Source: Psammoneis japonica
Lineage: Eukaryota
NCBI GenBank assembly: GCA_008632985.1
Contig: QPGO01000084.1
Span: forward strand, 124,001 to 188,000
Length of the DNA stretch: 64,000 nucleotides
Direction: 5' to 3'
Of this stretch, positions 3,121 to 58,200 are shown one piece after another. The position numbers and the translations under genes were made by a program. Position 1 is the stretch's first letter, and every line of letters starts with the position of its first letter. The notes under the pieces are model-generated. The model saw nothing but the letters and a program-made list of their open reading frames with translations, was not told the DNA's origin and searched no databases.

Positions 3121-3154
3121 CATGCCATCGTGAACTTGAACGTGTTTGAGCCAA

Positions 3155-26804: not shown

Positions 26805-26824
26805 TTCTCAGAAAAATCCGATTT

Positions 26825-27039: not shown

Positions 27040-27254
27040 GATTTTCAAAAAATGTCGGAAGCACGTTTGTTTTGAGTGGCGTGTGATGCTGTACACACAA
27101 TCAAGTCACAGCGCAAATTTTAACCCTTAGGGCCCTAGCTAGACCCTGTCCAAACCAGGGTTAACTAATTGCAAAGTTTTCTGCAGCAATCAGATTGCAA
27201 TCAGTCGATTGCTCTCTGCGCAAGAGCGCACTCCGCGCAGGAGAAAAGCCCGCC

Positions 27255-27621: not shown

Positions 27622-30600
27622 TTGTGTATACACACCACAGAAGGTAAAAAGCACGGAAAATGAAAATTTTAACTAATGTGCCTTTGCAAATTCTTCCACA
27701 AACAGGAACGAATCGCATCAGTTCTGCTGGAATCGATTTCCGAGCGGAAGAAGCTCAAGCCGAGCAGTGCCTCAAGATGGAACGCTGTTTTTCGTCTACC
27801 AGACAAGAGGATTCGCTCTAATACGGTCTATTCCAAGCACCCAAGGATCAAGGGCTCTCAAGTACACCGCATTGTCAAAAAATCTACACCAAGTCATGGT
27901 TGCAGAGAATGCAAGTTCCGAGTCGATCAGGTCCGAGAAATACGTCTGGTGTGCAAGGAGAGACTATTGGAGAGTTTTTGGAGACCGAATCAACGAGCCT
28001 CGAGTCCAAGAGCAAGATGGAACCGTTGGAAAGTACCTCAAGAGTCTCATGTCTCATGTCTTTCCAAGAATTGCACTTCAGAATCAGAATTATTATTTTC
28101 AAGACGATCTGAAGAAACCAGAGCTGCTTGACAGCAAGAAAGCCTCTGTTAGACCCAAGAGGTCAATGATGAGAGTCTATGCGACCCTCAGATGGATTCT
28201 AAGTAGAATCTAGCGGGAAACCGAGCGCTGATTTATCAGCTATCACTCGCACCGCAAGGATGGCAGCATCAGTCTACTGTCCAAAACAATCAACTATTGC
28301 AACTCATCCTTGATGAGCTGATTAAGTTTTGAGTCATCTATAGGTCGTTCATGACGTCTGTGATGAAAAAACATATCAACTCAGGCTCGGATAGCGCAGT
28401 TGGTTCCAAAATAAAAAAGGTTCCAAATTTGGTTCCAAAAATGGTCTCCCATATGGTACCAGAACAATCCAAAGTGAATGCAAGGTCTTATCTTTGAAAA
28501 AAGAATACCTACATCACGGATTGAAGCTATTCTAAAAATGAACTAGCAAAAGAGTGCAAGGGTGACTCTGAAAGAGACCCAAAAATGCGCCGTTCAAATG
28601 GCAATCGCACGCGGTCGCGTCGCGATAACGAAAATGCCGCTCGCAAAAAAAGAGATGAACGTCATGATTGATCAGGCGGTTCAAAAAATACTCAAAGCGA
28701 GTTCCTTGAACAAAGAAAAAGAGCATAAGGGCAAAGAATCAGATTCTGATACCCTCAGTGAAGAAAAATACCAATTTGATCGGATGATCCAGACTGAATC
28801 CGAAGAATAATTTTGGTCTATTCACGAATTATATGCTTTACTGGATATTAGGAAGCCTAGAAAAAAGGCAGAAATAATTCACACTAGTCCAGGAGTCATC
28901 ATTTATATGAATACTTCCTTGGGAAAGGAGAGAAAAAAAAGCATCTACGTGTTCCTATCGATAACGGAACATCGTCAACCATAATTTTGCGCAAATTCGT
29001 GCGAAAGTTGAGAACACAAGAATCCGCCACCAAAAACTTGGGAAACCAAGGGTGAGCTCTTTACGACTGATAGTAAACACCGAATTCAGTTCTCACTATG
29101 CGAAATTTAAGGCATACTGATATGCAAACAGTATATGTTGAAAACACCAAATTTTCTTCAGGTTCAAATGATATGATCATGGGACGCGACTTAATGTCCA
29201 GTCCTACAAGTCATATTGGACTACGCAAATGAAGAAATCTAATGGGAAGAAGCAATTACCTTATGAAGAATGTTCATACACTCTTCGATGCCGATGTTTT
29301 CAAGCTGAAAACCGATCACATTGAAAAATATGACGCCGTGAATAGAGTTAATAACGGAACCAATGGTCCTCGACTCACATTATCACGCCATCGATCTTAA
29401 TCAAGTGACAACTACGGCGATGCATCTAACCCAAATGAACACAACCAACTCAATCTTCTTCTTAAGAGGTTGAAATCGTTTTGAAAAGTTCCTCAGACGA
29501 ATGTATGGGAAGCATCAGTGGATCTCATCGTGGAAAATCTGACGCGATTCCACGACGCGTGAGAACCTTCTCCTATCATAGTCTTTGGAGGCGTCCAATC
29601 AAAAGGAGTTTGACCTATTATGAAAGATTGAAGTCTTAAAAATGAAATTACTCTGATAAGTCGCTCTGAGACTCATTGTCTAAAGAAAACAGGTCGAGTT
29701 CGACCGTATCCGACACTCAGAAGCTTAGTAAAAGGTTCATACACGTGGTGTATCCTTTACCCAATATTCAGGAAATACTATTGAAGCAAGAACGTTTCAT
29801 ATATGTAATCTATTTGATTCAAATATGGAATGCCACCATGTCAAATAAAAAAAGCACACGTCGTGCTCACACGAAAATCATGCCGTAGGGAGAAAATGAG
29901 TACTATAGGCTTCCAATGAGAATCTATAGAGCCCCAGATATTTTTTAACAACACATGAATGAACTCATAACAGGTTTGAAGTTGTCAGAACGACTGTATA
30001 TGATCGTTTATACCTGACAAAAGGTGACTTCAAAATATCACCTGTACAAGTGACAGCTTAATACGGCATTCAAACGACTAGAACAGTCGCTTAGAAGGTT
30101 AACAACAAAAGTCCTTCACTATTTAACTTGAAATAAACTATCAAGACTTCCATACGTAACGATATGCAATCGATTACAAAGAAAATGGAGGCGATTCAAA
30201 CAATCGCAACACGAGAAAAACGTAAAGAACGCTACGACATCTCGTTGTCATACGTTACTATTATCGAGACATGTAGTCTCAACGATCTCCTGTACAATAC
30301 TAGCCAAATTCACCTCAATAAAGGTCAAACGGCAAAAGTACAAGTACGGAACGAAAAGTCTCCGAAAATATGGAGCGTATCAAATCAAAAACTATATTGT
30401 TATCATACACGTGTTTCAATATTATACGTTACAACGGAAAAAAGAACTTCTGTCCATAGTGAAAACACTTAAAAAATTCCGAAATATACTGTTTGGCCAA
30501 CAGATTTATATATATACGGATCATAAGACATAACGGACAAAGTCATTCGTTGACGACTTACAATAGAAAACTTCAGTCCCGAATTAAAATACAGCGAGGG

Positions 30601-31633
30601 CAAGGCGAACATCGTCGCGATAGACGCGATCAGCCGACTTACTATAGAAAATTGAATCCTACGACAATGTCCTACCGTTAAAACGGGATAAAGACATTTC
30701 CCTCCAAATTGTCGGACGCGACATATCATACGAACACTTTTCGTGGAGGCGAGCGAGATCGAAAAATGCTCATGTCATAAGGAAAAAATCGCCTTATTTA
30801 GGGACGGTTAAAGAAAAAATCAGTGACAGATTGGTATACATTATACGTACCTACTTCACACTGGCAAAAGACAATCTCACAACACCCGTACGGTTGTATT
30901 GTACAATGTACGAGGCAAGACATTAAAATATACATCATGTCGACACACGAGATGTGCCAAAGATCTAGAAAAAGAAAAGAAAAATGGACATTTATCCACT
31001 TAGTGCACGAAACCAGTGCCTTCGGAATGACAAAATAACACCGGTATGTCAGAAAGAAACGTCCAAATAACGATTAAAATCCAACTGATAGATGGTTGAA
31101 GTACAAAAAAAAAATCCATAATGGAATTCATAACCATCACAGGATTGATTATCAAGACGAAATGGTCATAATATCTTTGACCATCGTTTGTTGTTACTTA
31201 TGAAACGTGGTAGTGCAGCAGAGCAATATGGCATATAAAGTAAGCCCGCCAAACTACATGAAATCCACAAGTAAGTAAGTGAACGCCATAATTAAGAGCG
31301 TACATTAAGTACTGGGCACGATGCTATGTACAATCGATATCAGGAAAAACACTTACTCCAGGACAATTAGTCCTTGTGTTCATATCAACAAAGAACGTCA
31401 ACGAGAATACTCGACGTAATACTATATATACATATATATAAAGTGAGAAACAAACGATGTCACTCTCATAAGACATTCGGAAATTGGAACGGCCCCACAT
31501 GGCCTATATACAAAACGACAACAGTCATTACTAATGGCACAATACAGTGAACGTGGAGACATTATTGACACTGTCAATATCCGTCGAATAATCCACTTAA
31601 CAAATGACTCTAATGTGCAATTAGGGAGGCGAA

Positions 31634-32000
31634 TGCAGTATGCGACTGTTATATACATATTTATGATTATACATTATTTATATGTCAATCGTACCACAGT
31701 CGTGGATGCGTACAAAGGACAGAACGATCACACAGAGTTGATCGGATGTCGAGAATTGCAAATACGATCGATTGACGATGTTGACATCTTACGTGTCAAT
31801 AGCAATCGTATCCGGACAATCTGTTGTCACGAATATATTCTCCGAAAGGCCTTTTGTCTGTAGAAGCAGTACAGAAGCTTTAGGCCATTGAGAACTCATT
31901 CGGAGAAACCAAAAATCACAGAGTAAAATCCAATCTTATAATTTCCACTTTTCGTACACTATTCTACTTTCGTTTACACTCGTTCTTCGAGCATAGTGCA
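31634..32000 (+). repeat. 3' LTR
   Basis: Direct repeat of 27255-27621. Confidence 0.95.
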
Positions 32001-38330: not shown

Positions 38331-39284
38331 TTACACACTCTGGAACTCTCCCTTTATTGCTCGTTCACCTTGTGGAACAACATTTTCGAGCCGTTGAATC
38401 AGACGCTTCTGCAATCCAAATTCACTGTCCACCGCTCCCATCAAATGGGATCGACATGCTCACACATGTCTCCGACAAAGGCATACATTAACAAATTGCG
38501 CGACAGCGCTCGATCAATCCCACGCGATCGTAAATAAAACAATTCTTCTTCACTCAAATCCGACACAGTCGCTCCGTGCGTACACTGGACATCATCCGCA
38601 ATAATTTCCAAGGACGGAACGGTCCAAATGCGGGAACGGTCCGAAAGCAGAATGGTACGTGACAATTGTTGACTATCCGTTTGTTGTGCCGATTGCTCCA
38701 CCCGAATGCGTCCACGAAAGGAGGCCGTGGCGCGGCCACCCACCATGTTTTTTGTCCCTGACGACTGACCGTGCCTTGACCGACGTGATGGATATTGGTC
38801 TTCATGTCTCCACGCTGCGCTCCACCGGAAAGCATAAAGCCATTGACCGTAGCACTTGCTTCGGGACGAAGAAGCGAGACGGAGAGTGCGACACGGACGC
38901 GGCCACTTCCGCCGACCCCCAAGAGTGTGCCGGTATACGAGGCAGCGTCACCCATGCAATGAACATCGATTACTTCGAGGTGTGTATCTTGCAGTTCAGC
39001 ACGTTCCGCTTCCACCTCTCGTGGAAGTGGCGTACCTTTTTCAACATCCTCATCATTCAATTCCACACCCGCCGTCACCATGCCACCCGTTTCTTCCAAA
39101 TAGGAATGCGTCACATTGGCGCCCGTCTTGACAAACATTTGCGTTTATCCGTTGCGCAATTTGGGTCGAACCATTTCTCCGGATACATCCAAATCGATGC
39201 AGGACTGAATTAAGGACAAGTTGCTTCCTTCCTCGGCAATGATGAGTGCACGAGGATGACACGAAACGCCCTTTTCACTTTGAT
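38331..39284 (-). pseudogene. sufD: Fe-S cluster assembly protein SufD, 3' part
   Basis: HPRALIIAEEG, FRGRIRVEQSAQQTDSQQLSRTILLSD, PSLEIIADDVQCTHGATVSDL..EELFYLRSRGI. In-frame stop at 39145-47 and frameshifts near 38750 and 38440. Confidence 0.9.
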
Positions 39285-40376
39285 GAGTAAAGGGAAAAAA
39301 GTGTGTCACAAGTGTGTCAAGTGTGTCAGTGTACCATGCCATCACGTAAACTCTACACAAACTGCATCCGGGTGACACACACTCGTTTACTTATGGGTGA
39401 CACACTTAAAAACATAAGGGTGACACACTTACTGACTCACCTTTTTACCGATTTGAATTGCCCCTGACACACTTATTTTTCAATTTCTACAGCCCCCTTG
39501 CCGGTACACAAACATGTAGAATGCACGAAAATCACGACCAAATTGATGGCGGAAAAGGGAAAAGTGTGTTGTACGATATTATGTACCAACGTCTATGCAA
39601 CCAGAATTGGATTAGAGTTTTATGTTTAATCCCGCGGATTTCCGCAGTACTGACCGCGTGGATTTCTACACTGTGCGTTGAATCATCCACGCCTTTTCGT
39701 ATGATGCGAACCACAAAACATCGAAATAGCAAATCGACGCCGACCAACAGGAGCTTCATTTCTTCCGCAACCAACTCTTTCTCTCCTTGTTTCTGCTCTT
39801 CACCAAAACTTGACAAAAACTCTGGTCACACAAAGAAATTAACAGCACTCGTTTTTCTTTTGTGTCTGCCAAATTGTGTCCAGAACACTGTTTCTACAGG
39901 ACTCTGGTACAGATTTTGTGTAGAAAAATTGTGGCACCTGGTTGTCACTAATTCTGCTTTGCCAGTGGTGAACACATTGATCTAGTGTGCTCAGAGCACT
40001 TGCACTGGTTGGAGAAAACCACGAAGAACACCAGCAGGGAAAAAGTTGGCTCATTTCTGCACCAACAAACTTTTCTCACAGCAAGCCCAGGCGCCGGTCG
40101 CCGCCCCTTTCTGGAAAGCCCCCTGCTCCTCTCCTGTTCAGTGTCGTTCCCCAAGAGGCTGAGAAAGTTTTTTGTTCAGATCTGAGCCCAGTGCACAGCA
40201 CTGCATGGTGAGTTCCATCCACACTTTGCAGCTTCTTGCTGGTCTTTGCATTTTTGCAAAAAGGAAGTCTGGCCCACCCGCCGGACGCGGCGGCCCAATT
40301 TTTGGTTTTGACAGACAATCTCAACTCAAGCTTGTTCAACAAATCTTTTCTCCTGAAAAACACCATCAGCTGAGCC

Positions 40377-42420
40377 ATGAGCACCTCCAAGGGCGAGCCT
40401 GAGGATGGGCTCACTCCCCCCCCACAAGCACAGCAAGGCTTCTTTGCTCAGTTTGTGCAGCCCAAGCTTTTGCTGGAGAGGATGGAGTTTGAGCAACGCC
40501 AAAGAGACCTGCTTTTGATGGTGAACAATGCAGCTGGCACCAATCTTGTGCCTCCTGACCTTGCCACACCTTGGCCTGCTCCAGCTCAAGCTGGCTTTTT
40601 GCCAATGCAGCCCAGCTCCAGCCAACCTGCGGCCCGCAGAGCTCAGGTGTCACAGCTGTCGCCGTCCTCCGTTGGCAGGAAAAGCACCCAATCACTGGGG
40701 CAGCCTCACTCTGCTGCCAAAAGCTTCCCCTCTGCCAAAGCTCTGTCTGGCACTTCAGACCTGGGCCCATCTGCTGCCTCTGTCCCTGGCTTGTCCAACA
40801 TCAACGTGGGCTTGCCCGAGCTCCCCAACTCCCACTCTCAAGTGTGGTCTGTTGCTGGAGATTTGCCAGGCCGCTGCCCAGGTGTTGGCTGGGCAATGGG
40901 AGTCTACTCTTGTGTTGAGCGTGGCACCAAAAAGACAATTTGCAAACACTGCTTGGGTGTCCACATTTGCACAGGTTGCAGCCTTTTTGTTGAAAGGCCC
41001 CGCCAGCCACAGGGTGGAAAAAAGAAGTTCATGCCTCCCATGCCATCAAAGCTGGTGTGCCCAAACTGTCCAAGCAACGCAGAGGGCAAGGTGCCAGCAA
41101 TGAAGCACATGCCTTGCACCTGCACAATGACCTTCACAAAGGATGGAGGCTCTGCTTGGCTTGTGCAGCACAAAGGAGCACACAAACACCCCAAGCCCCC
41201 GCCATCAAAGTTGACGCCTCAAGCACAAAGTGCGTTTGACAATCTTGTCCATTTGGCTCCAGAGGCAACTCCATCACAGCTCAGGGTTGGCAACCAAACC
41301 AGGGCACCAGTTTCAAAGCTGCACCCATCATTGTTCAACTTGGACAGAGCGAGTTATTTGCGCCAAAAGGCGCTGAAGCCCATGTCTGTCCGCTCCTCAA
41401 TCGCAGAGCTGGCAAACTTCAGAAATGATGTGGACAGATCCTTCATTCGAAGTGAGCAACTCACCACAGAAAATCAACACATCATTGTGCAAAATGATGA
41501 CATGATTGAGCTGTTGAAAGAAGGCAACAGCCCCCTGCAAACAGACTCTGTGGAAGGTTTTGTTTTTGATCCGGACTTCCAAGGTGAAATCAATGTCACG
41601 TTCACCTCAGGGTTCGACCTCACCCTGCAAATGTGGACCCCTCTTTGCATCAGCATTCTGTTTGGGAAAACAGAAGCCCACTGCAAGGTGCACTGGCAGG
41701 CTGTGCTCCAGTGCACACGAGCTGAGTCGTGGCCACAGTTTGTGGACGAGTTTCCTGGCAACACCAGTGACTTCTCAGATGCCATTCGGAAGGGTTTTTT
41801 TGCAGCCATGAAAGTGTTTGCAAAAGAAAAGTTTGACCAGGCAAAGGTTGCAGATGAAGAAACCAACCACCTTTGCAAGTTTTGCAATGTTCACTTTGAG
41901 AGGTCACGTGCCAGAGTTGCCCGCAACAGAGGTGTTGTCTCTGCTGATTTGGAGGGCGAGTTTGACTGCCAGGTAAATGAGATGAGGTCATTTGCACAAG
42001 GACAGTGCGAAAAGTTGGAGAGCAGCTGCAAACTGTTCTTCAAGTGCTTCCCAAAGGCCACTTCTTGGTTAAAGTGGCACCTCAATCCCAAACGAGCCAC
42101 AATTTTTTTCGATGCTTGCAAAAATCTCAATGAAAGGCAGGCAAAAAAAATGACAGCCTTTGTGATGACACCAATGCTCAAGAGAATGTTGGGAAGCGTT
42201 TTCAAACATGCACAGTCAGGAAAAAAATGACAGTTGGAGAAACGCTTCTTCATGCATGGAAGTTCTGCAACTCCGATCAACAAGACAGGAAGGCAGTTCA
42301 GGCTGGGCTCCCCACTCGTCATGGCGCTTTTCAGACAGTTGAGAGTGGCTGCAACAGTCCAAGGAAAAGGAGCAAAAAGCGCAAGTTCACAAATGATGGG
42401 AGAGCTCCTGACATGTCAGA
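40377..42420 (+). pseudogene. MULE transposase with GCM-like Zn/DNA-binding domain
   Basis: CLGVHIC..C...RP...CPNC..HMPC...HKGAHKHPKP; DDE-core-like LQTDSV, TSDFSDAIRKGF, CNVH (CxxH), WLKWH; DTNAQE follows a frameshift in an A8 run (~42143-42150). Confidence 0.75.
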
Positions 42421-42559
42421 AAAGCTGCTCAAGCGATCACGAAAAACTTCCAAAAAAGACGCATCAACAATGCCAAGCAAGACACAAATGCAAACATCAG
42501 TCACAGACTTCTACTCTTGGGATGACCCCAATTCCATGATGGCCAGGATGTTTGACCCA

Positions 42560-44897
42560 CCAAGGTGGGGTGTGGAGGGCACCCCCTCACGCAGAGGAAT
42601 CACAAACACATGCCCTGTGGACAGCTTTGCTGTTCTTTTTGGAGGCCTTGACCACCTTGGTCTGCTGAACAGGCCAATGGCTGAGCTTCAACAGCCTGAT
42701 CACCTGTTGGCAAGAACTGTGGCTCTGATGAAGGTGGGCAGGCATGATGATGCTCGCCATCTTTGGGTGGCTGACCGGACAGTGCTGCCTTGCATGGATC
42801 GCACAGTGGTGAGGAGCAGCACACATGCAAAAAAGTTTGACATGTTTGGCCCATCAATTTCGGTTGTTTTTGGTCACCCATTCTTAGAGTCATTCGAGTT
42901 TCAGGTCAAATTTGAGTGCAACTGCACTGGTGGAAAAGATTGGTGCCCCAATGCACAGCCAACCAATGTGACAGAAACACGCACTGTTGTTGAGTGCATC
43001 GATGACCTCTCTCAGCTGCAAGAGACACTTGACAGGTGGGTGGGTGAGCACCTTTCAAGCTGTGCATGTCTGGAAGGTGGCGGAAAGGAGATGTCTCCTG
43101 ATGACCTGCAGCAGCTTAACTGGGAGACTGACACCACTTTGCAGGCAACAGTGGGTGCACACGCGGGCAATGCCTGTGGCGGCACTGTTTTTTCATCTGG
43201 AAAAAGAGTCATCAGGTGCCCTCATTTCTTGGTGTGTCACGGGCCAGCAAAAGGTCCCACATCTGACTTGTCAACTGTCCCAAAGTCCACAATCTTTGCA
43301 GGAAAAAGAGGGCTGCTCAGGGGGACCATCAACACACAAAACAACATGCACCACACTTGCTGCATCAAGCTGCCTGTGGTGGAAAACAGAAGAACAGCTT
43401 CATTGCACCACAAGGTGCGCCATGGGCAGGGTGCCAGCAGAAGACATCAAGAATCTTGTGGAAGAAGCAACTGGGCTTCCCAATCATCAAGATCTCTGGG
43501 ACATGGCTGCAGAGTTGGGCATTTCTTTTGCGAGCCAACCTGGCAGTGAGCAAAAGGAGACACAGCCTGCTCAGACAAGTGTGAACAGTGCGCTCTTTGA
43601 GGGAGAAACAGTGTCGCTGCCTGTCATCAAATGGGGTGTGGACCCAACACCAAAGCTCTGTGAGTTGACCAACACGTGTTCGCTGGACTCAAATTTGGCA
43701 TTGATGTGGATTTTGCTGAGAAACAATGGTTTCACCAGCAACTCAGTTGCACCAAAAGCTCACACTCTGCACAAGGCAATGAAGATGATTGACAAAGGTC
43801 AGTCAGGAGAAGCAAGGCACATGATCCACAGGTCTGCCCCCCTCTCTCCACAGCAGAAGACACTGCAGATTTCAAACAACCCACAAAATGTTGTTGTGGA
43901 CTGCTGGGAAAGTGCAGGACTGAGGGCACAACACTTGCTGCAAGGAGGAGCCAAGCACAAGTTTCAAATCACACTGACCAGCTGTGCCAATCCATTGTGT
44001 CTGTTTGATTGCAAAATGTCAAAGTCAACAGCAAATCAAGCTGTTGCTTCCCAGAACTCAAAGTGGACTGACCTTGAGTTTTTTGAATCTGAAATTTTCA
44101 AAAAGCAAAGGAGAGTAAATTGCGCGATGTGTCATGAAAGGACAACTGTGAAAACAGAGGAGCTGTTGTCATTTGAGTCCAACTTGTTGGTTGCAGACAT
44201 GGGGCTTGGGGTGGACGAAAGTGGAAACAGCAGCATTTCCTCTCAAAGATTCAACACTTTGCCATTTGTTGTTCCTCACAAACACAAAGAACTGCATTTC
44301 AAGGGAGCAATTTTGGCAACCAACAACCACTTCAAAACCATTGTAAAGTTGCCAAACTGCTTTGTTGCACATGATGGCATGTGCACTCCACAATGTCAAG
44401 TGCACTCTCTTGAGGTCACAGAGGCGGAGGCAAAAGACATGCAAAACAATGGAGAGACTGAGTTTCATCTGCAGTGGCTTTTGCACGAAGTGTTGGACAG
44501 GGAGAACAGAGCAGTTCTTGCCAGCCCAGAGAAACAACTTCCAGAAAACCTTGACATGCAACATGACAGCACAGTGGAGGAGTTTCCAGAAAACATGGAG
44601 CCCCAAGATCAACCAAAGGAGCTTCCAGAAAATCATCCGCAGCCAGAAGCAGCTTCATCAACAACCACAGAATTGGCAAATGGCAGCTCTCAAGAGGAGC
44701 TCAGGTTTGTGTTTGTGGACACAATGGAGTCCTGGAGAAAGTGCAGGGGATGTGAAGGAAGAGTTAAGAAAGGGCAGGAGGCAATGCAGGTGAGGGTGCG
44801 GAGAAGGCCAAAGAAGGAAATCTTCTGCCACACAACAACAGAGTGTGTTCAAAACACACTGTTTTCACTGCAGGCGAAGATGGAGATGCAATGTTAG
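42560..44897 (+). pseudogene. MULE-borne region with two papain/USP-like protease domains and a C-terminal Zn finger
   Basis: Duplicated module WGV..TP....TNTCPVDS / WGV..TP....TNTCSLDS with downstream His boxes (NNMHHT; NNHFKT...AHDGM); RKCRGC...CHTTTEC. Confidence 0.55.
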
Positions 44898-45209
44898 ACT
44901 CATTTTGCAGCCAGGACCTTGCTCATTTGGAGAGCGATGCTGTGACAAAAGCACAAAGGGTGCTCCAGTCACTGTTGGACACAGAAACAAGCAGCGCCCC
45001 CCCTTGAGGGCATCGCCAGGCAACCAGGAGAAGAGCTGCCTGGTGCCCCAAAAAGCTCACTTCCATCTGACTTTTTTGGCTGTGTGGAGACTTGTTTTGT
45101 CACATCACATTTTACCACATCATTTTGGTTTGTGACAAAATTGCATTTCATGTCACTTGGTTACGTGCACATTGTGAAAGTGTGGCATTTAATTGTGTGT
45201 TTGACTCAA

Positions 45210-46000
45210 GTGCAACATCACATCACACCACATGACACAACATGACACAATGTGACATTGTGCCATGTGATGTCACACAACATGATGTGATGTCAAATGG
45301 TGTGGCTGTTTTGTGTCATGTGATGAACTGCACAAATGTCAATTGTCTGTCTCAAGTTCTGCAATTTAGTTTGTGACAACATTTCATTTTTTGGTGTCAT
45401 GTGATGAGCTGCAAAATTGTCAATTGTCTGTGTCAAGTTGTGCAATTTTGTCAAATGCAGAGCAAAGCAAATTCAGACATTGGTTCTGCAAAGTCGTGCA
45501 ATTTTGTTGAATGCAGAGCAAAGCAAGTTCAGACATTGGCTCTGCAAAGTTGTGCAATTTTGTCAAATGCAGAGCAAAGCAAATTCAGACATTGGTTCTG
45601 CAATTTCATTTAAATTCAGACATTGGTTCTGCAATTTTGTTCAATGCTCACACCAGGTTAAATTGAAAATTTGCTCATCTCAGGTGAAATTGTGGCACAA
45701 TTCAAGCACCATTGCATGCAGCGTGATGGTAAATCCAGACATGGGCTCTTCAACATTTAGCTCATCTCAGCTCATTTTAGGTCAATGTGACATGATGTCA
45801 ACACATTAAGTTGCACAATGTCACACGTGAACGAAATTGTTGTGTGTTTGGCTGAAGTGCAAAATCATGTCATCATGTGACATGACATGACATGTCATCA
45901 TGTGACATCACATGACATGATGTGACACAACAAACATGGCATGACAACATGTGGGTGTAAATGCCGGTTTAGTGTTGACACATGAAGTCACACAATGTCA
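45210..46000. repeat. Low-complexity block: 5-bp periodic YRYNR microsatellites flanking ~57-bp tandem repeats
   Basis: catca/catga/cacaa/tgtga/tgtca runs at 45215-45295 and 45865-45950; gtgcaattttgtcaaatgcagagcaaagcaaattcagacattgg x3 at ~45440-45600. Confidence 0.8.
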
Positions 46001-46023
46001 CACATCAAGGAGTTTCTGCACCA

Positions 46024-47217
46024 TCACATGCAGCGCAAGATTTTTTCAGCCTTTGCCGGATCTGGTGGACAAGCCTTCATTGCGTTTTTCAACTTGGCGC
46101 GACTGCTTTTGTCCAAGGCTTTCAACACACAAACCTTCTCTCCTCCAATTCTCTCAAAACAATCCAACATGGTCACCTTTGTTTTGAAGTCTTTGTCGCT
46201 TTTGTGGCCCTCCTGAAACTCAACGCAGCCATGCCATGCCTTGGTCACAGCAGCTGCAGATCGACCTTTAAAAGGGTTGGACTTGTGCTTGTCCTGTTGC
46301 TCGTCCTGCGGCTCGCACTGCTCCTCCTGTGGCTCATCATGCCTCTGCTGCTCGTCCTGCAACTCCTGCGGCTTGTCCTTCTGCCCATCCTCCCCATCAC
46401 CCACCTGCTCATCTTCCTCAGGTTGGTCCTTGTCCCCAATGTGGTGCTGTTCGTAGTTCTTTGGATCCTTGAGATTTCCCCTGGGGGCAAGTCGGTGCGA
46501 CAAAATGGTCTTCATTGCCATCTGCTTTTTCCTTCCATGTTGTGCAACAATGGCATCCTCTGCTGCCACCGGGCACCTGTTCCTGGGCTCATGTGCTTCA
46601 ACAACAGCAACCTCTGGGAAGGCCTTGCCACCGTGGCCCGCCGGTGCGTCTTCTTCTGCCATGCCCTTGTGACGGGATTTGTTGGGCTTCTTTCCTGTCT
46701 TGTTGCTCTTCTTCTTCCTGTGTTTCTGGGGCAACTTCGCCACCTTTACATCATCAGAGCTGTCAGCAGCAACAGCATCATCAGAGGAGCTGCAGGCAGA
46801 GGAACCGTCAGTGTCCTCAGAGACATCATCATCCAAGTCGCTGTTTGGAGCCGTCTTCCTTTTCTTGTTGGTGCCCTCAGAGACATCATTTTTTCCCCTT
46901 TTCTTCTGAAGACTCTTCAAGTGCTTCCTCCAGGCCTCAAAGTGCACACATTTGGGGCCATGCTTCTGGCAGCAGCTGGTGAGGGTGGTGGCTTTCTGGA
47001 TGGAATGCTCCACCCCATGCTCGGCGGCGCAAGGCAAACAAATGTGCTTGGTGGGTGTTTCCTCCACCATGCTGGGTGTCACCATGTTGTTTGCCCCACC
47101 TCCTGTGGATGCGGCAAAACAACGGATTCCTCCTTCCCTCATGGAAGTCTTGACAGCTGCCTTTAGTGCACGAAAGTCATTCTTTACACTTGACGACATC
47201 ATGGTCCACCAACACAC
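46024..47217 (-). pseudogene. Second, convergent MULE ORF (accessory, charged low-complexity)
   Basis: Long minus-strand ORF near the right TIR with K/D/E/Q-rich tracts. The convergent two-gene layout is typical of MuDR-like elements. ORF length is partly inflated by stop-codon loss. Confidence 0.45.
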
Positions 47218-47480
47218 AAACGATGTGAATGTGAACTTGGACGGTGTGCACCGCAGTGGGTGGCCGCGCGTCAGCTCAGAATTCTGATTGCATCGTGTGG
47301 TGGTGGCTCCTCTTCACATGCACACGTGGCAGCGTGTGCGGGCCTTCTGTCACTGGACGTCACCGTGACGTTGTTTTAATCGCACTGGACGAAACGCGCG
47401 CAAAATTGCACGTAAAAAATTGACACACTTGAGTGGCACACTCATGACACACTTGATGACACACTTTTTTCCCTTTCCCC

Positions 47481-47990
47481 CACTTTGATCACTGCTGTTT
47501 CCACTGTCGGCCGTCATGGCATTGACCAAAAGAACGGGTTTATCCTCATTTTGAGAAGCATGTCGAACACGCGCCACGGCGCCGGCTCGAATGGTGTTTG
47601 GGGCGGCAAAGCATGCTGTGCCTTGTTGAGCATCAATGGCAAATTGACTGGTGGGATCACCCATGTTGTGATCGGGTCCACTGAGTTTGCGATGCGACGA
47701 CAGCAGGGGGGTCAGACGGTCAATGATGACATTTCGTCACTTTAAAAAGGGGTCATTTCTTTGCTCAAGGGGGTTGTTGAGGGACGAGGCAAGTGACCGA
47801 GCACTGCAACAACTGTCCCGCCTGATGTCACCGCATCTGCAAGTTGCCATGAGAGCCAGCCGAAAACGCTCTGCGCGGGGGGGGGGCATGACCTGGTGCA
47901 TCCGCAAGCTGAGTGACTTCCGCCGCTCACACAAGCTCGCTCTGCGCGTGACTTCTCCACACCATGATCACGCTTTTGGGTCAAATTGAA
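47481..47990 (-). pseudogene. sufD: SufD upstream part (TpA-depleted), continuing across the MULE
   Basis: SHRKLSGPDHNMGDPTSQFAIDAQQGTACFAAPNTIRAGAVA...KPVLLVNAMTADSGNSSDQS joins in frame to EKGVSCHPR at 39275 once the element is removed. Far boundary approximate. Confidence 0.8.
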
Positions 47991-50250
47991 GCTCCAAAGA
48001 AATGTGGGGGGAGGCGCAAAGCCCGTGTGAGACCTCCTTGCAGCTCTTGCAACAAAAAACACATCCAGCAGTGCACTGTCATGGCAGGAGACAAGGCAAG
48101 TCATGGTGCCCACACAGCGACTTTGTCGTGCCTGGTGAAAACAGCGGACAGCCACAGCATCAAAAGTTGCTGTTCTTGGCACTGGAGGAGCTCAAGACGC
48201 GCTCTGCAAGTCCAGCCAGGTGAGGGGCACTCCCAACTGGGAGGTCTGCAAGTGGTGGGTGAGGGGCCTTGCCTGCCTCCTCGCGCCACTCACTGGACTG
48301 TGCACACGAGACTTTTTTAGATGATGATGCCACACCACATTTCTGCGTGCTGTCTTCTGCAAAATTGTTCCAGGCTCCTTTTTTTTGTGAAGCCAAACAA
48401 GGCTTTTTATTTTCCACATTTGTGAGAACGAAAACAGTGTGCTTCAAATGTGGAGGAGGAGGCACTTTCACAAAATGGCCCATTTTTCTGTTGGCAACCA
48501 CAGAGCATCTTGCACACAGAATCTGCAGGCAAATGCCACACAGCCCCACCCAGGGCTGGTGAGCACATCTCAAAAAGGAGGCAAGATCTGGCGGCTGCTC
48601 TGCGGACAGCTGTGGAAAAGAAAACACAAGCAGCGATGGTGACACTTCTGCCTCCTGGATTTTTGACTGGTCAATGTGGGCGACAGGCAGGCTCTGCAGC
48701 TGACTCTGGATGGGCCAGAGCAATCTCTTGTGGAAAAATGACAAACCTTGAGTTCAATCTTTTGCAGAGGATGAAAGAAATGACAAAGCGAGCACGGAGA
48801 AAGGAGTCATGAAAAAGCTGAAGCTTCCAACTTGCTGCATGTCCTGAGAGAACAAGGTGTCAATTTCATGACACGCTGCACATCATGCAAGCAGCAAAGG
48901 CAAGTTGGTGTGCCAGGCACATGTGTGCAAAAACATGCAGACACATCTTCAATCTGGCAGCCAGCTGTGCTGAACAAGCTCTGTGGCCCACCTGATGGCA
49001 CTCTGCATGTGGCTATGCCAACCCAGATGTGGTGCATGCCTTTCAACAAAAGTCAAAGTGAACAATGTTTTGAAAGCATTGGCGAGTGGTGCCAAGCAAA
49101 AGAAGAACAAAGATTGCTCCCCTTGCTGCTGTGAGGCATTTGTGTTGGCCATGTGAAGCAAAAGTGGCAGGAGCCAGCCAACACACACAAAGAGACCAAG
49201 TCAGAAGCTGTGGCCTTGCACAGAGGAGACAGAGGGGGCACTGCAGTGGCAACAATGACTGTGCAGGGCAGTGATGTGCACAGGCTCAGATGCTTGACTG
49301 GGCAAGAGAGTGGAACATTTGCAGGTGCAAATGTTGGGAACATTTTGCAGCAAAAAAGTTGCTTGATTTTTGTGGTTGCACTCATGGGTTTTTCCCAATT
49401 TCTGTTGGGACTCTCTCTGTTTTGTGTGCCAGCTTTGGCTTTTCATCACAGCAAGAAAGTTTTGTGACAATGATGGTCAAAGTGCACCACAAAATGCAAA
49501 CAGCACAGCCATTTGGCGCCAGCCATGGGAATCTCATCAGTCTGGCGCCACAGCACATGTTTCAGCAGCAGGTGTCAGTGCTTGATGGCCCTGCTGCAGG
49601 CATTTTGTTGTGGCCACATTTTGTCTTCTGCCACACTGGGGGAACCACAATCTCTCTCCACAGAGTTCCGTGGCATTTTTGTGTGGAGCCACTGACAAAA
49701 CTGACCTGCGGTCATGCCGCTGTTGCTCTCATCAGAGAGGTTCTGCAGCAGGGGATGCCAGCAGATCACAGGTGAGCTGCCAGCTCTGATTTCAAGAGGA
49801 AGGGCTGAAAACAAAGTTCTGTTGAAGAAATGGGCAGTCAGCTGACAAACAGAGCACTCCTCCGCCCTTGGGCTGACTCTTCCAGTGCCCAAAATGTGCA
49901 CGATGTGCTCTTGACCTGAGGGCTGGCTCAAGACAACACCTTGCACCATCTCCAATTGCCAAAACAAAGATGTGGTGTGCCCACATCATTTCATCCTGCT
50001 TGAAAGATCTTTCGCACTTGATCCACACCTCTCCCCATTGAATGCTCCTCACACAGAAATCACAAGAGCTGTTGGTGTGCCGCTGTGATGGTGTCAGTTG
50101 AGACTCCAATTCTTGCGGTCCATGCTGTTGCGATGAGACAAGGCAAACAAGGACAACAGCAGTCCAAACAGTGGTGTGCTGCAGCCGGTGACGTGACGCG
50201 ACGTGGATGGCTGATGAGTGATGCATGAGATGATGAGAGCGATGAGCGAT
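47990..50250. other. Unclassified TpA/CpG-depleted degenerate sequence
   Basis: Same compositional signature as the neighbouring transposon; no motif that I can assign. Confidence 0.5.
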
Positions 50251-50471
50251 GAATGAGGCAGGGCGCTCGCGAGGTTGGAGAAAACGGCATGTAGACTACG
50301 AAGTCTGGCGGGGCCCTCGTCCGTCCGTCCCTGTCACCTTCAGCCCGCTTCCCGCCGTTCTTCCATGCCACGCACATCTTGAATGTACAGTTAGCATCAT
50401 GCCATAACGGTATCAATCGTAGTGTTGTTGTTGACTTGTGAACTATTTCTGTTCTAAGCTATGCCATAATC

Positions 50472-51398
50472 ATGCTGAAGTCGCTAAGGTCTAGTAGATT
50501 AGTCTTCCATGTGAATCGTCGAGTTGTCTTTTCAGCTCAGAAAAGTCAGTCGCAACAATGTTTACTTCTAAGAAGATGGAAAAGCGCGCATTCCTCCGAG
50601 GAAGCGCAACGCCGGGCCTATGATTTTTACCGCAAGAAGCAACCAAAGTCTTGGCTTTCTAGAAAGAAGAACAACCCTATGTCTCGTGAAGAGCGTGCTG
50701 TTCAAATGGCATGGTATAGTTTTGCCGTGGTGGTAGGTGCGCTGGGTGCAACATATGCGTCTGTTCCGTTGTACAAAATGTTCTGCCAAGCCACGGGTTT
50801 TGGTGGAACGACACAACGAGTTACTCTGACGGATTGGGCGCAGCAGCAAGAAGAACGTGAAGCGAGTGGAATACCACGGCAGATTCAAAACTTGCTACAG
50901 CCACTCTTGGAGAAAGCTCCCAAAGGATTGAGAAACACGGGCCGTGTGCATACATGGACCGACGAAGAAGCGGCTGCGAAATTGGCAACGCTAAAACCCG
51001 TGGAGAATTCGAGATTAATCACGGTACGATTCGATTCGACGGTGGGTGATGTGCTACCTTGGACATTTGTTCCTACGCAATTGGACGTCAAGGTGGTTCC
51101 GGGTGAAACCGCTCTGTCCTTCTTTACAGTTTCCAACAAATCCAACAAGGCCATCACCGGTGTCGCCACTTACAATGTGCATCCTCCCAAGGCTGGATTG
51201 TATTTCAACAAGATTCAGTGTTTTTGTTTTGAAGAACAGCGGCTGCTACCGGGGGAAACTGTAGATATGCCTGTCTTTTTCTTTATCGATCCGGATTTCT
51301 TGGAGGACCCACAACTGAACCATGTGAATAACATTACACTGAGTTATACCTTTTTCCAAACAGACGAAGAGGAAGATGATGATGGAGGGGAAGAATAA
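50472..51398 (+). CDS. COX11: Cytochrome c oxidase assembly protein COX11 (mitochondrial)
   Basis: Basic transit-like N-terminus; YASVPLYKMFCQATGFGGT; VVPGETAL; YFNKIQCFCFEEQRL; DMPVFFFIDP; ITLSYTFF. Confidence 0.96.
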   Translation: MLKSLRSSRLVFHVNRRVVFSAQKSQSQQCLLLRRWKSAHSSEEAQRRAYDFYRKKQPKSWLSRKKNNPMSREERAVQMAWYSFAVVVGALGATYASVPLYKMFCQATGFGGTTQRVTLTDWAQQQEEREASGIPRQIQNLLQPLLEKAPKGLRNTGRVHTWTDEEAAAKLATLKPVENSRLITVRFDSTVGDVLPWTFVPTQLDVKVVPGETALSFFTVSNKSNKAITGVATYNVHPPKAGLYFNKIQCFCFEEQRLLPGETVDMPVFFFIDPDFLEDPQLNHVNNITLSYTFFQTDEEEDDDGGEE

Positions 51399-54029: not shown

Positions 54030-55058
54030 CTCTTTTTCATGACAAGCGGCTTGGCATGGGACTTGTACAAGCTACACCACGATATCTTTTTCGAGCTAGC
54101 GGGCAGGAGCCGGATACACTTGCTATCTCGCAAGAGGGTAATGAAACATTGGATTTTGCTCTTGCGTTGCCTGAGCTTTTGTTGTTATCTACCGTACAGC
54201 ATTTCCGTTGGCGCCTGCAAGAAGGAAGAAATGGTTTTTCGTGGAGACAGGGATTTTTCCGTGAGTCCATGACAAGGCATGAGTACCACAGTCGGAAACA
54301 AGTTACAATTACAGATGAAGCTGGGGATTTTCTCTTTTGTCGAGAGTGGTCCATTGGCGTATCCACCGCTTCAGCCTGAGTGACGAGGGCACGTCGTAGG
54401 CAGTGTCCTCAACTGTTTTTTCCATGCCGCGGCTACTTTTTCGTGGCGTCGACCGTCGGGGCAACGTGGTGGAGCAGGCGGTCGATCAGCGCGAGCAAGG
54501 TCATCTCATTCAAGATTGACGACGAAACCCGCGTGCTACGGCAGGTCAGCATGGTTGGGAACCTTTGGGGTGGCAATCGCGGTGCGATGTCACCGCGACA
54601 GTGCATACGTCATGACGTTCAAAGAAATGGATCCGCTGCATCCATACATCATCGATCTGTCGATTCCTGAGAACCCCCGGGTCAGCGGAGACCTCAAGAT
54701 TTATGGTTTCAGCACGAACCTTCACCGAGTGGAACCGGGAGAAGTCCTCGGTGACGGAAAGGACGTGTCAAGTTCGAGCGCATGCTTGGGGACGAAGGTG
54801 TCGCTGTTCGACGTGAGCGACGAAACAAACCGAAAGAAGTGGCAATGTGGACCTTCAAGGGAAGCTAGTCAAATTCAGAGTGAGATAACCGGGCATTTTT
54901 GCACTGAACAAAAGCGTCAACTCGCAATCATGCCCGTTCCTATGACCGAAGATAGAACGGTGTTTAGCGGCGCCATAAATCTCAAAATTGTGGAAAACAT
55001 GAAAACAAAAGCGAGCAGCAGTGTTCCTTCCCTGCCTTTCAAAACTAACGCTAGCTAG
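54030..55058 (+). pseudogene. Beta-propeller-domain (Beta_propel-like) protein remnant
   Basis: AVRCHRDSAYVMTFKEMDPL.PYIIDLSIPENPRVSGDLKIYGFSTNLH...GTKVSLFDVSD matches the family pattern VRF.GD.AYVVTF..VDPL.VIDLS.P..P...GELKIPGFS.YLH...K.SLFDVS; frameshifted. Confidence 0.7.
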
Positions 55059-55259
55059 AGAGAACCATGGTTGTCTCCACCACGATTTCATTGAATCATA
55101 GAGCGGCAGCAGGAGCCCGGATCGTGGCCGACAACATTCTCATGCGTTTCAAAGTTTTGTTGCAGAGCACTTCTAGTCTTGACATGGATCGTCGTTAAGT
55201 GCTATTTTTTCACATGGCTAGTGATTTTTCAATTTCCCGCACTTCGCCTGTGCCCGTCC

Positions 55260-58200
55260 CCAAGCACGCGTGAGGTGTGGTTGTTACATTTGACGAACCA
55301 CAATTTGAAACAAAACACAGTCCAAGCACATCTGCCAAGAAACAAGTTCATGTTCTGTCCACTGTTTTACAAAAAGGTTTGGAACAAGCTGCTGAAGATG
55401 ATGGAGAGTGTTGCTCAATTCATCGGAATTGAACGGAGATGTGCAATTCTTTCTTGCAATTCTTTCTTTGGTCAAATTGATTTTGCAGGTCTTGTGCATT
55501 GCAGGGAGATTTTTTGTGTGCTGGTGCATGCTGTTTGCAGAAAATGTCAGACTTGTCATGATCCAAATGTTTCTTTTTCTTTTGTGAACAAGTGGCCTGT
55601 GCCAACAGAATTGTGAGAAAAAATGCTCACAGTGTGCCAGCCAGAATGGAAATTTCTTGCTGCAGATCTGCAGAGCAACCAAGTGATTGAACACAGCTGT
55701 GCCAATGACTCTGACTGGCTTTTTTGGCTGAGGTTCAAAGTCTGTCAGCAAAAAGGTGAAATTTTTTGCCAGTCTGAATCGAGGTTGGAGTTGGCAGCTG
55801 CAACCAGTGCTTGGGCTGACTGCATTTGGACATGAAATTTTCCATCTCAGGAGTGCACCAAGGGACACCAGGAGATTGTCTTCTTTCACATTGAAACTGC
55901 ACAAATCTTCTAAACCCAACAATGTCTGCAATGAACCTCTGCATCTCTCTGCCCCACTCAAGTGCCAAGCTCTGCATTTTGCAAACACAATTTGGCCAAC
56001 AGGAGGCTGTTGTCCCCTTTCTAAAAGCCACAGTGGTCCCTGTGCTCAAGGCAGATTATCTGGACAATGATCCTGCCAGTTGTTGTGTCCAGTTGAGCAA
56101 AACTGACAGCAAACAGTCTGGTGCACCAGCTCAAAACAAACAGCACCCTTTCACCCTGTTGTGCAGGTTTTTGGCATTCTCGTTCTGTGGCTGACCCCCT
56201 TGTGTGTCTTGTTGCCAAGGTCTGTCTTGCTTTTCAAAGCAAGCCTGCTGTGCAAACAACTCTCACTTGGCTCAACCTCAAGCCAGCATGCAGCTGAGTT
56301 GAACATTGGCATTTGCTGGATGTCATGTGCAGCTGGCTTCTGCTGCCATGTTGTGCCCACTTTCATCAAGGACTTCTCTGTCATTGCATGTTTTGAGTCA
56401 AATGTGGTGATCACCTTAGTCAACAAGCTGGCAAAAATTCCAGAGCACCCCAAGGTGCCATCTCTTCTCCTGCTCCATTTGTCATTTGCTTGTGGAAGAC
56501 AAAATTTGGCACAGACTTCCCTTGGCACAACAACGAAGCACCAAACTCAGGCACGTTCCCACCCTGATAATTTCGGCCGTAAAATAAATATAATTTGGCC
56601 AAATTTACGTATTTACGGGCGTCAGGCTGGGAACGAATTCGATCGGTAAAAAAGATCAAAATCTCATGTCGAGCTCGGTGAGGACGCTACACGCCACAGC
56701 ACTGTTTACACTGCTACTACAGCACTGGCTAGAGCTGCTAGCTAGAGAGACACCACAACATTGTCAGCGACAATCGTTGTCCATTTTGCGATTGCTCTAC
56801 GGTAACCCAAGACTCAGGATAACACCAGTGAAGGTCAGAAGAAATATATCCAACATTCAATCCACTAGCAAGAGTTGCAGAGAGATCAGAAAGACGCACG
56901 AAACAATGGCATGCAGTGAGACTACAGCATGTAAAACTACTAAATGTAATTTCTACAGAATGTGAGGTACTAAAAGGCACCATTGTTAACTCTTGCGGTT
57001 TACCATTGGCCTAAATCCATTTCAAAGAGCAAAGTAACAAAGAGCAAGTCGCAGAGAAGGCCTCCAGACAGTAGAGTAAGGCACTGTGAGGCAATGCCGA
57101 CGATGTTGCGCAAAACATTGACCCCCACCGGCATCATTGTCCTAACTTCCGACAAGATTGATGAAATAAGTGCACACAGCCTTCTTCATAGTCATATTCT
57201 ATCACAACAAGCCTTCCTGTTGTTGTTGAAGTGACCAAAATATTGCATTCTTGACTCTTGACCGTCAATCAAGTAACCTTGAGTATACACCAAAGAACCA
57301 CCTCAATGTAACATCAGATCATAATATATTGCTACGAGGATTCGGCCTCAAGTCTGTAGACGTATGGTTTGTGAAGAATCCCAACGCGAAATCTGAACAA
57401 GAGAAACGAAGACATCAAAAATACCATTAGTCGACACGGTCGTCATAAGCCATAACAACAACGAAAAATCAAAATTGTGACAGCTTGATCGTATCGAGCG
57501 TAGTCTTATTGACCTGTCTCTACATTCTTACCTTCGTAGACAGGACGGTCGTTCGTGTATGAACGGGTCCGTTCATGGCAGCAGCCATCATGGTTGTTGT
57601 GCGATCGGAGCGGAGAAAGAAAAAAAATGGGCGGCTTGTGTGACGTGGCACGTTCGAGCTCCCAAAACGCCGAATTTACCGTGAAAATTATATTTACGGG
57701 AGAGAATTTACGACGACCGACACCTGTCGTCGTAATTTGCTGATAATTTCGGCTGTAAATTGGCGGATGGAAAACAGACGTGCGATTTTTCTTGTACGAG
57801 AGTTTCTACAGGAATTTTGTGTAGAACGAAATTATATTTATTTTACGGCCGAAATTATCGGGGTTGGAACGTGCCTCAAGCTTTTTGCTGATGATCATAC
57901 AACACATGATGTGTCTGGTTGCAACAATGGAGTTCTTGCCCAAAAACTGCTTGACTTTGCATCTGCTCAGCCACCTGAGCCATTGGACAAGTGCACCACT
58001 CAGAAATGCCATCCCTTCCTTCTTGCACAAAACAACCACAATCCATGGCCTTGCATCACCAGGCACAACATCATGCTCTGGCCTCCAAACCTCAAGGACA
58101 AACATCACAAGCAGCCTTGCATTGAAGTCCTTGGAGTTTTTCTTAATCCAAAATCATTGTGGAGCATCACCTCCATGCATTGCTTGACAACTCAAGTCAG

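Follow-up and report, generated by a model that had tools for sequence, protein, structure and literature searches.

A copy of the gene sufD, split by a transposable element, has lost the dinucleotide TpA in one of its parts and kept it in the other. The copy lies in a 64,000-nucleotide stretch of the Psammoneis japonica genome (contig QPGO01000084.1, positions 124,001 to 188,000), which is called the window throughout and to which all positions refer. The 3′ part of the gene holds TpA (TA in counts) at an ordinary frequency, whereas a short piece of the 5′ part is enclosed in a sharp-edged tract from which TA has nearly vanished, and carries derived changes of the TA type. The unsplit form of the gene, with an empty insertion site, is present in contigs from one and the same sample. 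We consider it likely that TA was lost through regional editing in place, specific to TpA and of the type A:T to G:C, which would act on silenced DNA, host-gene DNA included.

TpA content of the two parts of a split sufD copy

In diatoms, sufD is a gene of the SUF system for Fe-S cluster assembly in the plastid and encodes a protein of the SufBD family. The window is eukaryotic, and its nearest SufD proteins come from raphid pennate diatoms. The interval 38334-39284 matched Pfam SUFBD_core (PF01458, E = 9.6 × 10−36 and 2.9 × 10−7), and the best database matches of the sufD part were the SufD proteins of Nitzschia inconspicua, Seminavis robusta, and Pseudo-nitzschia (65-73% identity over the query part). 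A preliminary description of this stretch, made from its letters alone, had proposed that a Mutator-like element split the gene. The split by an element with terminal inverted repeats (TIRs) and a 9-bp target-site duplication (TSD) is borne out by the TSD CACTTTGAT, the inverted ends, and same-sample contigs of the empty site. Here and below, same-sample comparisons refer to contigs of the runs X1-X3, which derive from a single sample of one study, the only sample found to contain this DNA. At the empty site, position 39275 was joined to 47481, with 8205 bases skipped and nine shared letters at the joint, which are the target duplication CACTTTGAT. The depth of this joint was 62.2 in X1, about half of the 111-120 measured on the 3′ part; in X2, it was contained in a contig of 2,676 nt (depth 36.6). 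Excision of 39285-47489 places SDQS next to EKGVSCHPR in frame, as had been described, and contigs of both X1 and X2 hold exactly this joined form.

In the window, sufD is a broken copy, with its two parts separated, some 290 N-terminal codons missing, and one stop. The T>A variant at 39145 had a depth of 62.3/122.7 in X1 and of 36.6/36.6 in X2. Two frameshifts in the window copy, at 38442 and 38749, are probably assembly errors, because an X1 contig at full depth (110.9) contradicts both; this contig differed from the window by two 1-base deletions and one substitution in 524 bp (38442, 38459, and 38749).

On the other side of the element, less of the gene is left than first assumed. The interval 47481-47990 had been taken as the 5′ half, with two TA and many CpG. 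These counts were reproduced (TA at 47541 and 47743, both in TTTA, with 25.9 expected; 32 CG, with 38.3 expected), but only 47481-47706 is sufD according to tblastn, hidden Markov model (HMM), and unsplit contig, and 284 of the 510 bp are not. In tblastn searches with seven diatom SufD proteins, residues ~296-376 aligned to 47479-47700 (47730 at most), and the first ~295 residues gave nothing significant anywhere in the window. An HMM built from 80 orthologues and run on the six frames of the whole window assigned its positions 202-283 to 47470-47706 and its positions 278-594 to 38334-39285, without any other match. The unsplit contig agreed with the window over 47481-47699 and then continued for 851 letters unlike the window; a 27-letter probe from this continuation was absent from the window at up to three mismatches. 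An intron border at 47699/47700 was considered and rejected, as the gene strand lacks an AG at the break.

The DNA from 47700 onward is another repeat, because X1 contigs beginning at 47702 or departing from the window at 47742 show other flanks, one of these contigs being a TA-bearing relative of the window sequence. Its depth reached 868 at 48156-48599. Its right end at 50085 is uncertain, as it was set by a single weak, low-depth X2 contig matching only 50086-50138. Within 47700-50085, neither a Pfam match in seven open frames nor clear terminal repeats were found. The features of the locus are collected in Table 1.

Table 1. Features at the split sufD copy and its surroundings (window positions; o/e, ratio of observed to expected count)
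Feature	Position	Strand	Evidence or composition
sufD 3′ part	38334..39284	-	C-terminal 318 codons, orthologue-HMM positions 278-594; 22 TA (o/e 0.39), CG o/e 1.24
In-frame TAA stop	39145..39147	-	Translation; unsplit form reads TAT (Tyr)
Left TSD copy, 9 bp, CACTTTGAT	39276..39284		Sequence; nine letters common at empty-site joint
TIR element, 8,196 bp, probably Mutator superfamily	39285..47480	+	TIRs, TSD, empty site; multi-copy in sample
Element left 699 bp	39285..39983		Not TA-depleted: 31 TA, o/e 0.54
TpA-depleted tract, 10.3 kb	39984..50291		35 TA, 643 expected (o/e 0.05); CG o/e 0.34; TG+CA o/e 1.72
Transposase relic, 618-aa open frame	40374..42227	+	10 homologues, down to E = 4.5 × 10−110
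TA-lost, CpG-kept patch	47201..48000		Element right end, sufD piece, and start of next repeat; 200-bp profile
Right TSD copy, 9 bp, CACTTTGAT	47481..47489		Sequence and same-sample contigs
sufD 5′ piece, 226 bp	47481..47706	-	Orthologue-HMM positions 202-283; 1 TA, 15 CG (o/e 0.93), TG+CA o/e 1.62
Repeat-derived DNA in place of sufD N-terminal part	47700..50085		TA o/e 0.03, CG o/e 0.29
Cox11/CtaG gene	50472..51398	+	Pfam CtaG_Cox11, E = 4.7 × 10−58; first TA-normal gene right of tract

Expected counts of TA, CG, and TG+CA were computed from base composition. Over 47481-47706, one TA was found versus 12.1 expected (o/e 0.08), and the 3′ part had 22 versus 56.7 (TG+CA o/e 1.22). The ordinary TA content claimed for the 3′ half is thus confirmed, its SufD identity included (38331-39284, which also holds 76 CG with 61.3 expected). 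As a reference for both parts, we used diatom sufD loci from metagenomes. Out of 80 loci, 64 were kept; the 16 that were dropped lacked a single plus-strand high-scoring segment pair over 70 or more of 77 residues or over 290 or more of 311. In the 64 loci, the segment corresponding to the piece contained 3-17 TA (mean 8.9 per 226 bp), and none had one TA or fewer. A functional sufD that is also TA-free over this segment, the outcome named in the preliminary description as speaking against its interpretation, was therefore not seen: all 64 orthologues hold at least three. The ratio of TA density in the 5′ segment to that in the 3′ part had a median of 0.98 and a minimum of 0.30 among these orthologues; the window, at 0.19, lies below all of them. 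The 22 TA of its 3′ part fall within the orthologue range of 16-62.

The letters now found at sites where diatoms tend to have TA point in the same direction. The piece contains eight sites with TA in at least 25% of 58 distinct orthologues; the window reads CA at five of them and TG, CG, and CT at one each, so that none still has TA. By the same criterion, applied to codon-aligned sequences, 36 sites were found in the 3′ part, and the window has TA at 12 and CA or TG at 10 of these. We also inspected protein columns that are conserved, i.e. with at least 60 residues present and one residue in at least 75% of the 80 orthologues (ten codons past 47706 were excluded as non-homologous). The window deviated in 8 of 44 such columns in the piece and in 16 of 206 in the 3′ part (Fisher P = 0.046), and the share of TA-type deviations (TA to TG, CA, or CG) was 4/8 and 1/16, respectively (P = 0.028). 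The four TA-type deviations in the piece are (i) Asn (80/80 orthologues) to Asp, by AAT to GAT after a T; (ii) Thr (60/80) to Ala, by ACT to GCT after a T; (iii) Leu (78/80) to Pro, by CTA to CCA; and (iv) Tyr (68/80) to Arg, by TAT to CGT, with both strands changed. Another of the eight is a change of CG to CA. A change of Tyr (53/80) to His, by TAT to CAT, stayed under the 75% threshold and was not counted. The deviations in the 3′ part were mostly Ile/Val or Leu/Met exchanges.

Alignment to an intact copy, which had been suggested as a check, became feasible with the unsplit contig and revealed a more diverged piece: the window differed from the contig in 13 of 219 letters in the piece versus 26 of 1603 letters, along with 17 gaps, over the 3′ part and its downstream flank (P = 3.6 × 10−4), a 3.7-fold difference. 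The differences listed in the 3′ coding part (38459, 39145, 39173, 39198, and 39238) comprise two changes of CpG to TpG or CpA and one nonsense change; none is of the TA type.

Taken together, the comparisons with orthologues, with conserved columns, and within the sample make the TA deficit of the piece solid. They also support the view that the loss arose in this copy and not in the gene lineage, because residues nearly invariant in diatoms appear altered as a change of TA to TG or CA predicts, and because divergence from the unsplit form is 3.7 times as high in the piece as in the 3′ part. The 3′ part is as dead as the 5′ piece, lies outside the depleted domain, and has been spared; selection therefore cannot explain why TA was kept in one and lost in the other. 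What had been described as two halves of one gene, of which only the enclosed one lost TpA while keeping CpG, is upheld by counts, orthologues, and contigs, with an enclosed part of 226 bp in place of 510.

The TpA-depleted tract and its borders

The piece belongs to a much longer TA-depleted tract, which spans the interior of the element, the sufD piece, the second repeat, and ~200 bp more, and which stops 180 bp before the start codon of Cox11. Its edges are sharp to ~100 bp: the last ordinary TA is at 39983, and TA occurs again from 50292. These edges do not follow the ends of the element, the left one lying 699 bp inside it. Accordingly, the piece is sandwiched between depleted DNA as had been stated, insofar as 39984-50291 is depleted around it; the left end of the element (39285-39983) is TA-normal. 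Within the tract, TG (1067) and CA (1154) were balanced, i.e. there was no strand bias, and products of both the TpG and the CpA type can be deduced within the 226-bp piece itself.

The few surviving TA were not distributed at random over sequence contexts. In the tracts 1-4320, 39984-50291, and 58215-64000, 34 of 47 survivors stood in (C/G/T)TAA or its complement TTA(G/C/A), versus 430 of 1803 TA in normal DNA (P = 7 × 10−12). Conversely, ATAN contexts accounted for 4 of 47 survivors in these three large tracts versus 915 of 1803 in normal DNA (P = 2 × 10−9). This bias may reflect a sequence preference of the process or be a signature of back-mutation. The earlier remark that both TA in 47481-47990 are TTTA is consistent with it.

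Loss of TA and loss of CpG did not go together. In the repeat bodies of the tract, the CG o/e was 0.29-0.31, but it was 0.93 in the sufD piece and 0.95 at 50086-50291, which is TA-less. In the last 280 bp of the element (47201-47480), the TA o/e was 0.13 and the CG o/e 0.99, and these belong to a continuous patch with lost TA and retained CpG (Table 1). A further margin of this kind is present at 3400-4320, and a free-standing zone at ~25900-27100. The latter contains a fragment of a beta-tubulin gene (26153-26479, plus strand; Pfam Tubulin_C, E = 4.5 × 10−22; PDB beta-tubulin residues 235-343, E = 6 × 10−42), which is nearly TA-less with normal CpG and in which two conserved Tyr read His and Cys in the alignment. 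The converse case is provided by the sufD 3′ part beside the junction, which has CpG-type and no TA-type changes among the differences listed. TpA loss is hence separable from CpG decay of the 5-methylcytosine type, because gene-derived DNA in the tract lost TA yet kept CpG.

We regard it as very improbable that the tract is an artefact, arising from assembly or base-calling errors (e.g. if long-read callers misread a modified TpA) or from chimeric joining. X1 contigs reproduced the tract with no other letters over 47664-48256 and with one over 48228-50800 (portions displayed), thereby bridging both the sufD/repeat junction and the right tract edge, and the changes are coherent at the codon level (Tyr to His or Cys) in two unrelated genes. 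Such an origin is nonetheless suggested by the full-depth X1 contig mentioned above, which contradicts at least three window letters or indels in 524 bp (38442, 38459, and 38749), and by the fact that only 72% of the sampled words of the window are present in X1.

The element and possible modes of TpA loss

The inserted element has TIRs that are identical at 33 of 35 terminal positions, with one indel, and contains repeated AAGTGTGTCA motifs. Its interior had an X1 depth of 135-590 versus ~60 on the single-copy flanks, and its left end, at 307-588, is likewise multi-copy. The open frame of the transposase relic belongs to a family with 2063 representatives, the profile of which matched the GCM1 DNA-binding domain (1odh, E = 2.1 × 10−9). 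Among the relatives, one carries an Ulp1 (P0172) and another a UCH (P0214) peptidase domain. An Atlas similarity of 0.92 to clusters named 'MULE transposase' (MULE, Mutator-like element) is the sole link to named MULE proteins. The Pfam domain MULE (PF10551) had no match in the window frame, in the 10 homologues (E up to 1), or in 30 further relatives (E up to 0.001). The family consensus shows a pattern D..A...C..H..R, which we take to resemble the MULE signature.

Mutator superfamily elements typically produce TSDs of ~9 bp (range 8-11), and a 9-bp TSD, TIRs, a WRKY/GCM1-type finger, and relatives carrying Ulp1 or UCH typify MULEs. Like these, the element of the window has a 9-bp TSD, TIRs starting with G(A/G)G, subterminal repeats, and a transposase family with an N-terminal zinc finger of the WRKY/GCM1 type; unlike MULEs with a MuDR-type DDE transposase (Pfam PF10551 or PF00872), neither its frame nor the relatives match PF10551. 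The assignment as Mutator-like is probable, because the 9-bp TSD, the inverted ends, the GCM1 match, the Ulp1 and UCH relatives, and the Atlas similarity agree. The label MULE in the preliminary description is thus probable, although the Pfam domain of this name found no match.

The transposase relic itself bears traces of TA loss. It contains 2 Tyr in 618 residues versus 1.5-3.4% Tyr in its homologues, and in the eight columns with Tyr in at least 5 of 10 homologues, the window has Cys three times, His twice, Tyr twice, and Leu once. The interior of the element thus underwent mutation at some time after its last functional protein was encoded. Another long open frame of the element (42972-44894, plus strand, 641 aa) has a weak Atlas resemblance to ubiquitin C-terminal hydrolases (0.80-0.83).

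The sequence of events that we consider most likely is as follows. A Mutator-like DNA transposon hit the sufD copy, and a second repeat, 220 bp upstream, replaced the N-terminal part of the gene; the element interior, the 226-bp piece, and the second repeat now form one 10.3-kb tract. A TpA-specific A:T to G:C process would then have converted, on either strand, ~95% of the TA to be expected there to TG or CA. It would act in place on a domain, most likely one defined by silenced chromatin or by transcripts, and not on repeats as such, because the left edge lies 700 bp inside the element, host-gene DNA is included, and the dead 3′ part is spared. The chemistry would most likely be enzymatic deamination of adenine at 5′-TA-3′ on either strand. 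A T-directed chemistry on the other strand, in which e.g. oxidised thymine mispairs with G, would have the same result, and the two are indistinguishable because TpA is its own complement. We infer that the depletion was acquired after the insertion, as the preliminary description had held, because one tract continues across the element, the gene piece, and the second repeat. About four-fifths of the expected TA are gone from the piece, versus an ordinary divergence of 0.5-1.6% from the unsplit form; the rate at TpA would be roughly two orders of magnitude above background.

The order of events might also be reversed. The second repeat (47700-50085) could have come first, with its zone of TA loss spreading ~220 bp into sufD, and a pre-mutated, non-autonomous copy of the Mutator-like element could have landed by chance at the edge of this zone; no depletion would then postdate the insertion of the element. 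We think this unlikely, since the insertion must then have fallen within ~65 bp of the old edge (the nearest TA of the 3′ part is at 39211), and since the patch at 47201-48000 is continuous over element end, gene piece, and second repeat, for which one event in place is simpler. In favor of the reversed order, margins of a few hundred bp with lost TA and kept CpG exist at other tract edges (3400-4320, possibly 50086-50291), the multi-copy element could be moved in trans, and the unmutated left 699 bp of the element are odd if the whole island was mutated in place.

Targeting could also be absent altogether, with all unselected DNA drifting from TA to TG or CA and the 3′ part being refreshed by gene conversion from an intact copy. 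For conversion, the 1.6 kb over which the 3′ part and the unsplit form are 98.4% identical would be enough, and the 219-bp piece is short and isolated. However, the left 699 bp of the element and a young long terminal repeat (LTR) element at 27255-32000 are unselected yet TA-normal, intergenic DNA adjoining genes retains a TA o/e of 0.5-0.9, and the tract edges are sharp to ~100 bp. Moreover, less than 140 bp from the junction the 3′ part has retained a nonsense change and CpG-type changes of its own, which argues that it is not being homogenised there. We consider drift without targeting improbable.

Several points weigh against regional editing in place. Taken alone, the piece is marginal (1 TA versus 4.7-5.2 at the rate of the 3′ part, Poisson P = 0.03-0.05), and the tests on conserved columns reach only P ~0.03-0.05. 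The 13 differences of the piece enter the comparison as a count and not as a substitution spectrum. The timing relative to the insertion is deduced, and the enzyme and the chromatin domain are predicted from the sequence. The window assembly is not error-free, X1 contigs lacking the letter of the window at several places.

Further points concern the copy and the element. The contig depths are compatible with a heterozygous insertion or with a second locus: Cox11 had an X1 depth of 62.6 and no variants, the sufD 3′ region one of 111-120 with 1.6% differences, and Cox11 and the island lay at 50-63, almost variant-free (depth per haplotype ~60). The trapped piece may therefore belong to a duplicated pseudogene copy and not to single-copy DNA of the host; the logic of a comparison before and after holds for an allele and for a second locus alike. 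Self-BLAST of the 64-kb window revealed neither the element nor sufD a second time. Finally, the left 699 bp of the element escaped the depletion. This part ends only 50 bp from position 39933, which an X1 contig (depth 85.8) joins to 47445 with 10 other letters in between. The contig comes from elsewhere in the sample and represents a short derivative of the element (left 649 bp plus right 36 bp). The nearness of this breakpoint to the tract edge hints at another cause of the edge, e.g. ectopic conversion.

In its most general form, editing of this kind would be the work of a domain-guided editor in diatoms, which would erase TpA from any DNA in a silenced transposon island, irrespective of where this DNA came from and in how many copies it exists. 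It would take ATA/TAT first and (C/G/T)TAA last, within the time of ~1% ordinary divergence and independently of cytosine methylation; a trapped fragment of a gene essential for plastid function would be rewritten, and the other half, 8 kb away, left as it was. It would amount to a RIP-like (RIP, repeat-induced point mutation) but chemically opposite defence shared by stramenopiles and rhizarians. We put this forward tentatively, with slightly more doubt than belief.

Comparison with known systems and other features of the window

The only published parallel that we found for A:T to G:C hypermutation restricted to TpA is a 2026 preprint on Bigelowiella natans (Mettrop et al., bioRxiv 10.64898/2026.01.13.699255). 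Of 231 new mutations that it reports for two integrated viral regions, 230 were A>G or T>C at TpA, and giant-virus and virophage DNA was targeted at a rate ~1000-fold above background (10.64898/2026.01.13.699255). The same text describes one target as single-copy and silent, names an ADAT2-like candidate enzyme, and reports long-term TpA depletion with enrichment of CpA and TpG (Rho_TpA 0.45; 10.64898/2026.01.13.699255). The words 'diatom', 'flanking', 'spread', 'CpG', 'context', and 'trinucleotide' were searched for in the preprint and do not occur (10.64898/2026.01.13.699255). A literature search, with most subscription journals outside its scope, found no report of TpA loss or RIP-like mutation in a diatom.

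The two cases agree in that A:T to G:C changes at TpA yield TpG or CpA depending on the strand, on both strands, and that TpA depletion comes with enrichment of CpA and TpG. In the window, the changes lie in a sharp-edged tract, which would be silent DNA as in the former. They differ in several respects: (i) the host of the former is a chlorarachniophyte and not a diatom; (ii) its depletion is modest, whereas that of the window is near saturation (o/e 0.05); (iii) its targets are viral inserts, whereas in the window a DNA transposon and a further repeat were affected together with the cellular gene piece trapped between them; and (iv) its rate was measured, whereas ours is deduced.

RIP introduces C to T transitions mostly at CpA, thereby creating TpA, in tracts co-extensive with duplicated homology, and can kill neighboring genes. 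Like RIP, the process in the window hypermutates transposon DNA by transitions in a dinucleotide context and has the look of a genome defence. RIP in ascomycete fungi is reported to leak into adjacent or linker single-copy DNA (PMC3105345, PMC11969663). Such a linker is resembled by the sufD piece between its two repeats. Two features separate RIP from the process in the window: RIP makes TpA from CpA, whereas TpA is destroyed here, and RIP follows duplicated sequence, whereas here the left end of the element, its most repeated part (depth 307-588), has escaped and the tract begins within the element.

Deaminases such as ADAT2/3, TadA, and ADAR convert adenosine to inosine, which is read as G and gives A:T to G:C changes, and they prefer a 5′ U or T neighbor. 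By analogy, polynucleotide adenosine deaminases might be a candidate class, their 5′ U/T preference fitting the TA target of the window. CpG decay, in turn, stems from deamination of 5-methylcytosine in methylated transposons. The repeat bodies of the tract are CpG-poor too (o/e ~0.3), and both processes feed TG and CA; the loss of TA is, however, uncoupled from the loss of CpG, with gene piece, right end of the element, and tubulin fragment being TA-less yet CpG-normal.

The value of the locus lies in the split gene, which is an internal control that most examples of the TpA process are without. As the unsplit form exists in the same sample, the locus is also a pair before and after the event. 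It points to a regional process with borders independent of transposon ends, which overruns DNA derived from cellular genes and is uncoupled from CpG decay. If the bias among survivors is true (ATA/TAT erased, TTAA-like contexts kept), candidate deaminases can be judged by the sequence preference that it implies. TpA editing, if true, would be a second genome defence common to distant algal lineages.

The 1-kb profile divided the window into two classes of DNA. Gene-bearing DNA had a TA o/e of ~0.4-0.9 and a CG o/e of ~0.8-1.6, and intergenic DNA adjoining genes retained a TA o/e of 0.5-0.9. The other class had a TA o/e of 0.00-0.14 in 1-4000, 26001-27000, 40001-50000, 55001-56000, and 58001-64000, most of which is CpG-poor too. 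At the margin of the first tract, which is TA-free but has partly retained its CpG, an open frame (3158-3985, minus strand) matched a nucleoporin FG-repeat region (E = 1.1 × 10−8); this match may be low-complexity noise or a gene-derived relic.

TA-less tracts are also without the stops TAA and TAG, and hence contain long false open reading frames; they lack Tyr codons as well, and gene finders and repeat classifiers in diatom genomes can be misled by both. Over 40000-50300, many long overlapping open frames occur in six frames on both strands, e.g. frames of 395 aa (plus) and 429 aa (minus) over 45979-47313. Most are without a family match and are probably not genes.

Outside these tracts, a 4.7-kb element that is AT-rich, TA-normal, and without an open frame of at least 200 aa is bounded by a pair of direct repeats with TG...CA ends (27255-27621 and 31634-32000), which agree at 366 of 367 positions. 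The element probably belongs to the non-autonomous LTR elements and is young. The sole difference between its LTRs is TA at 27293 versus CA at 31672.

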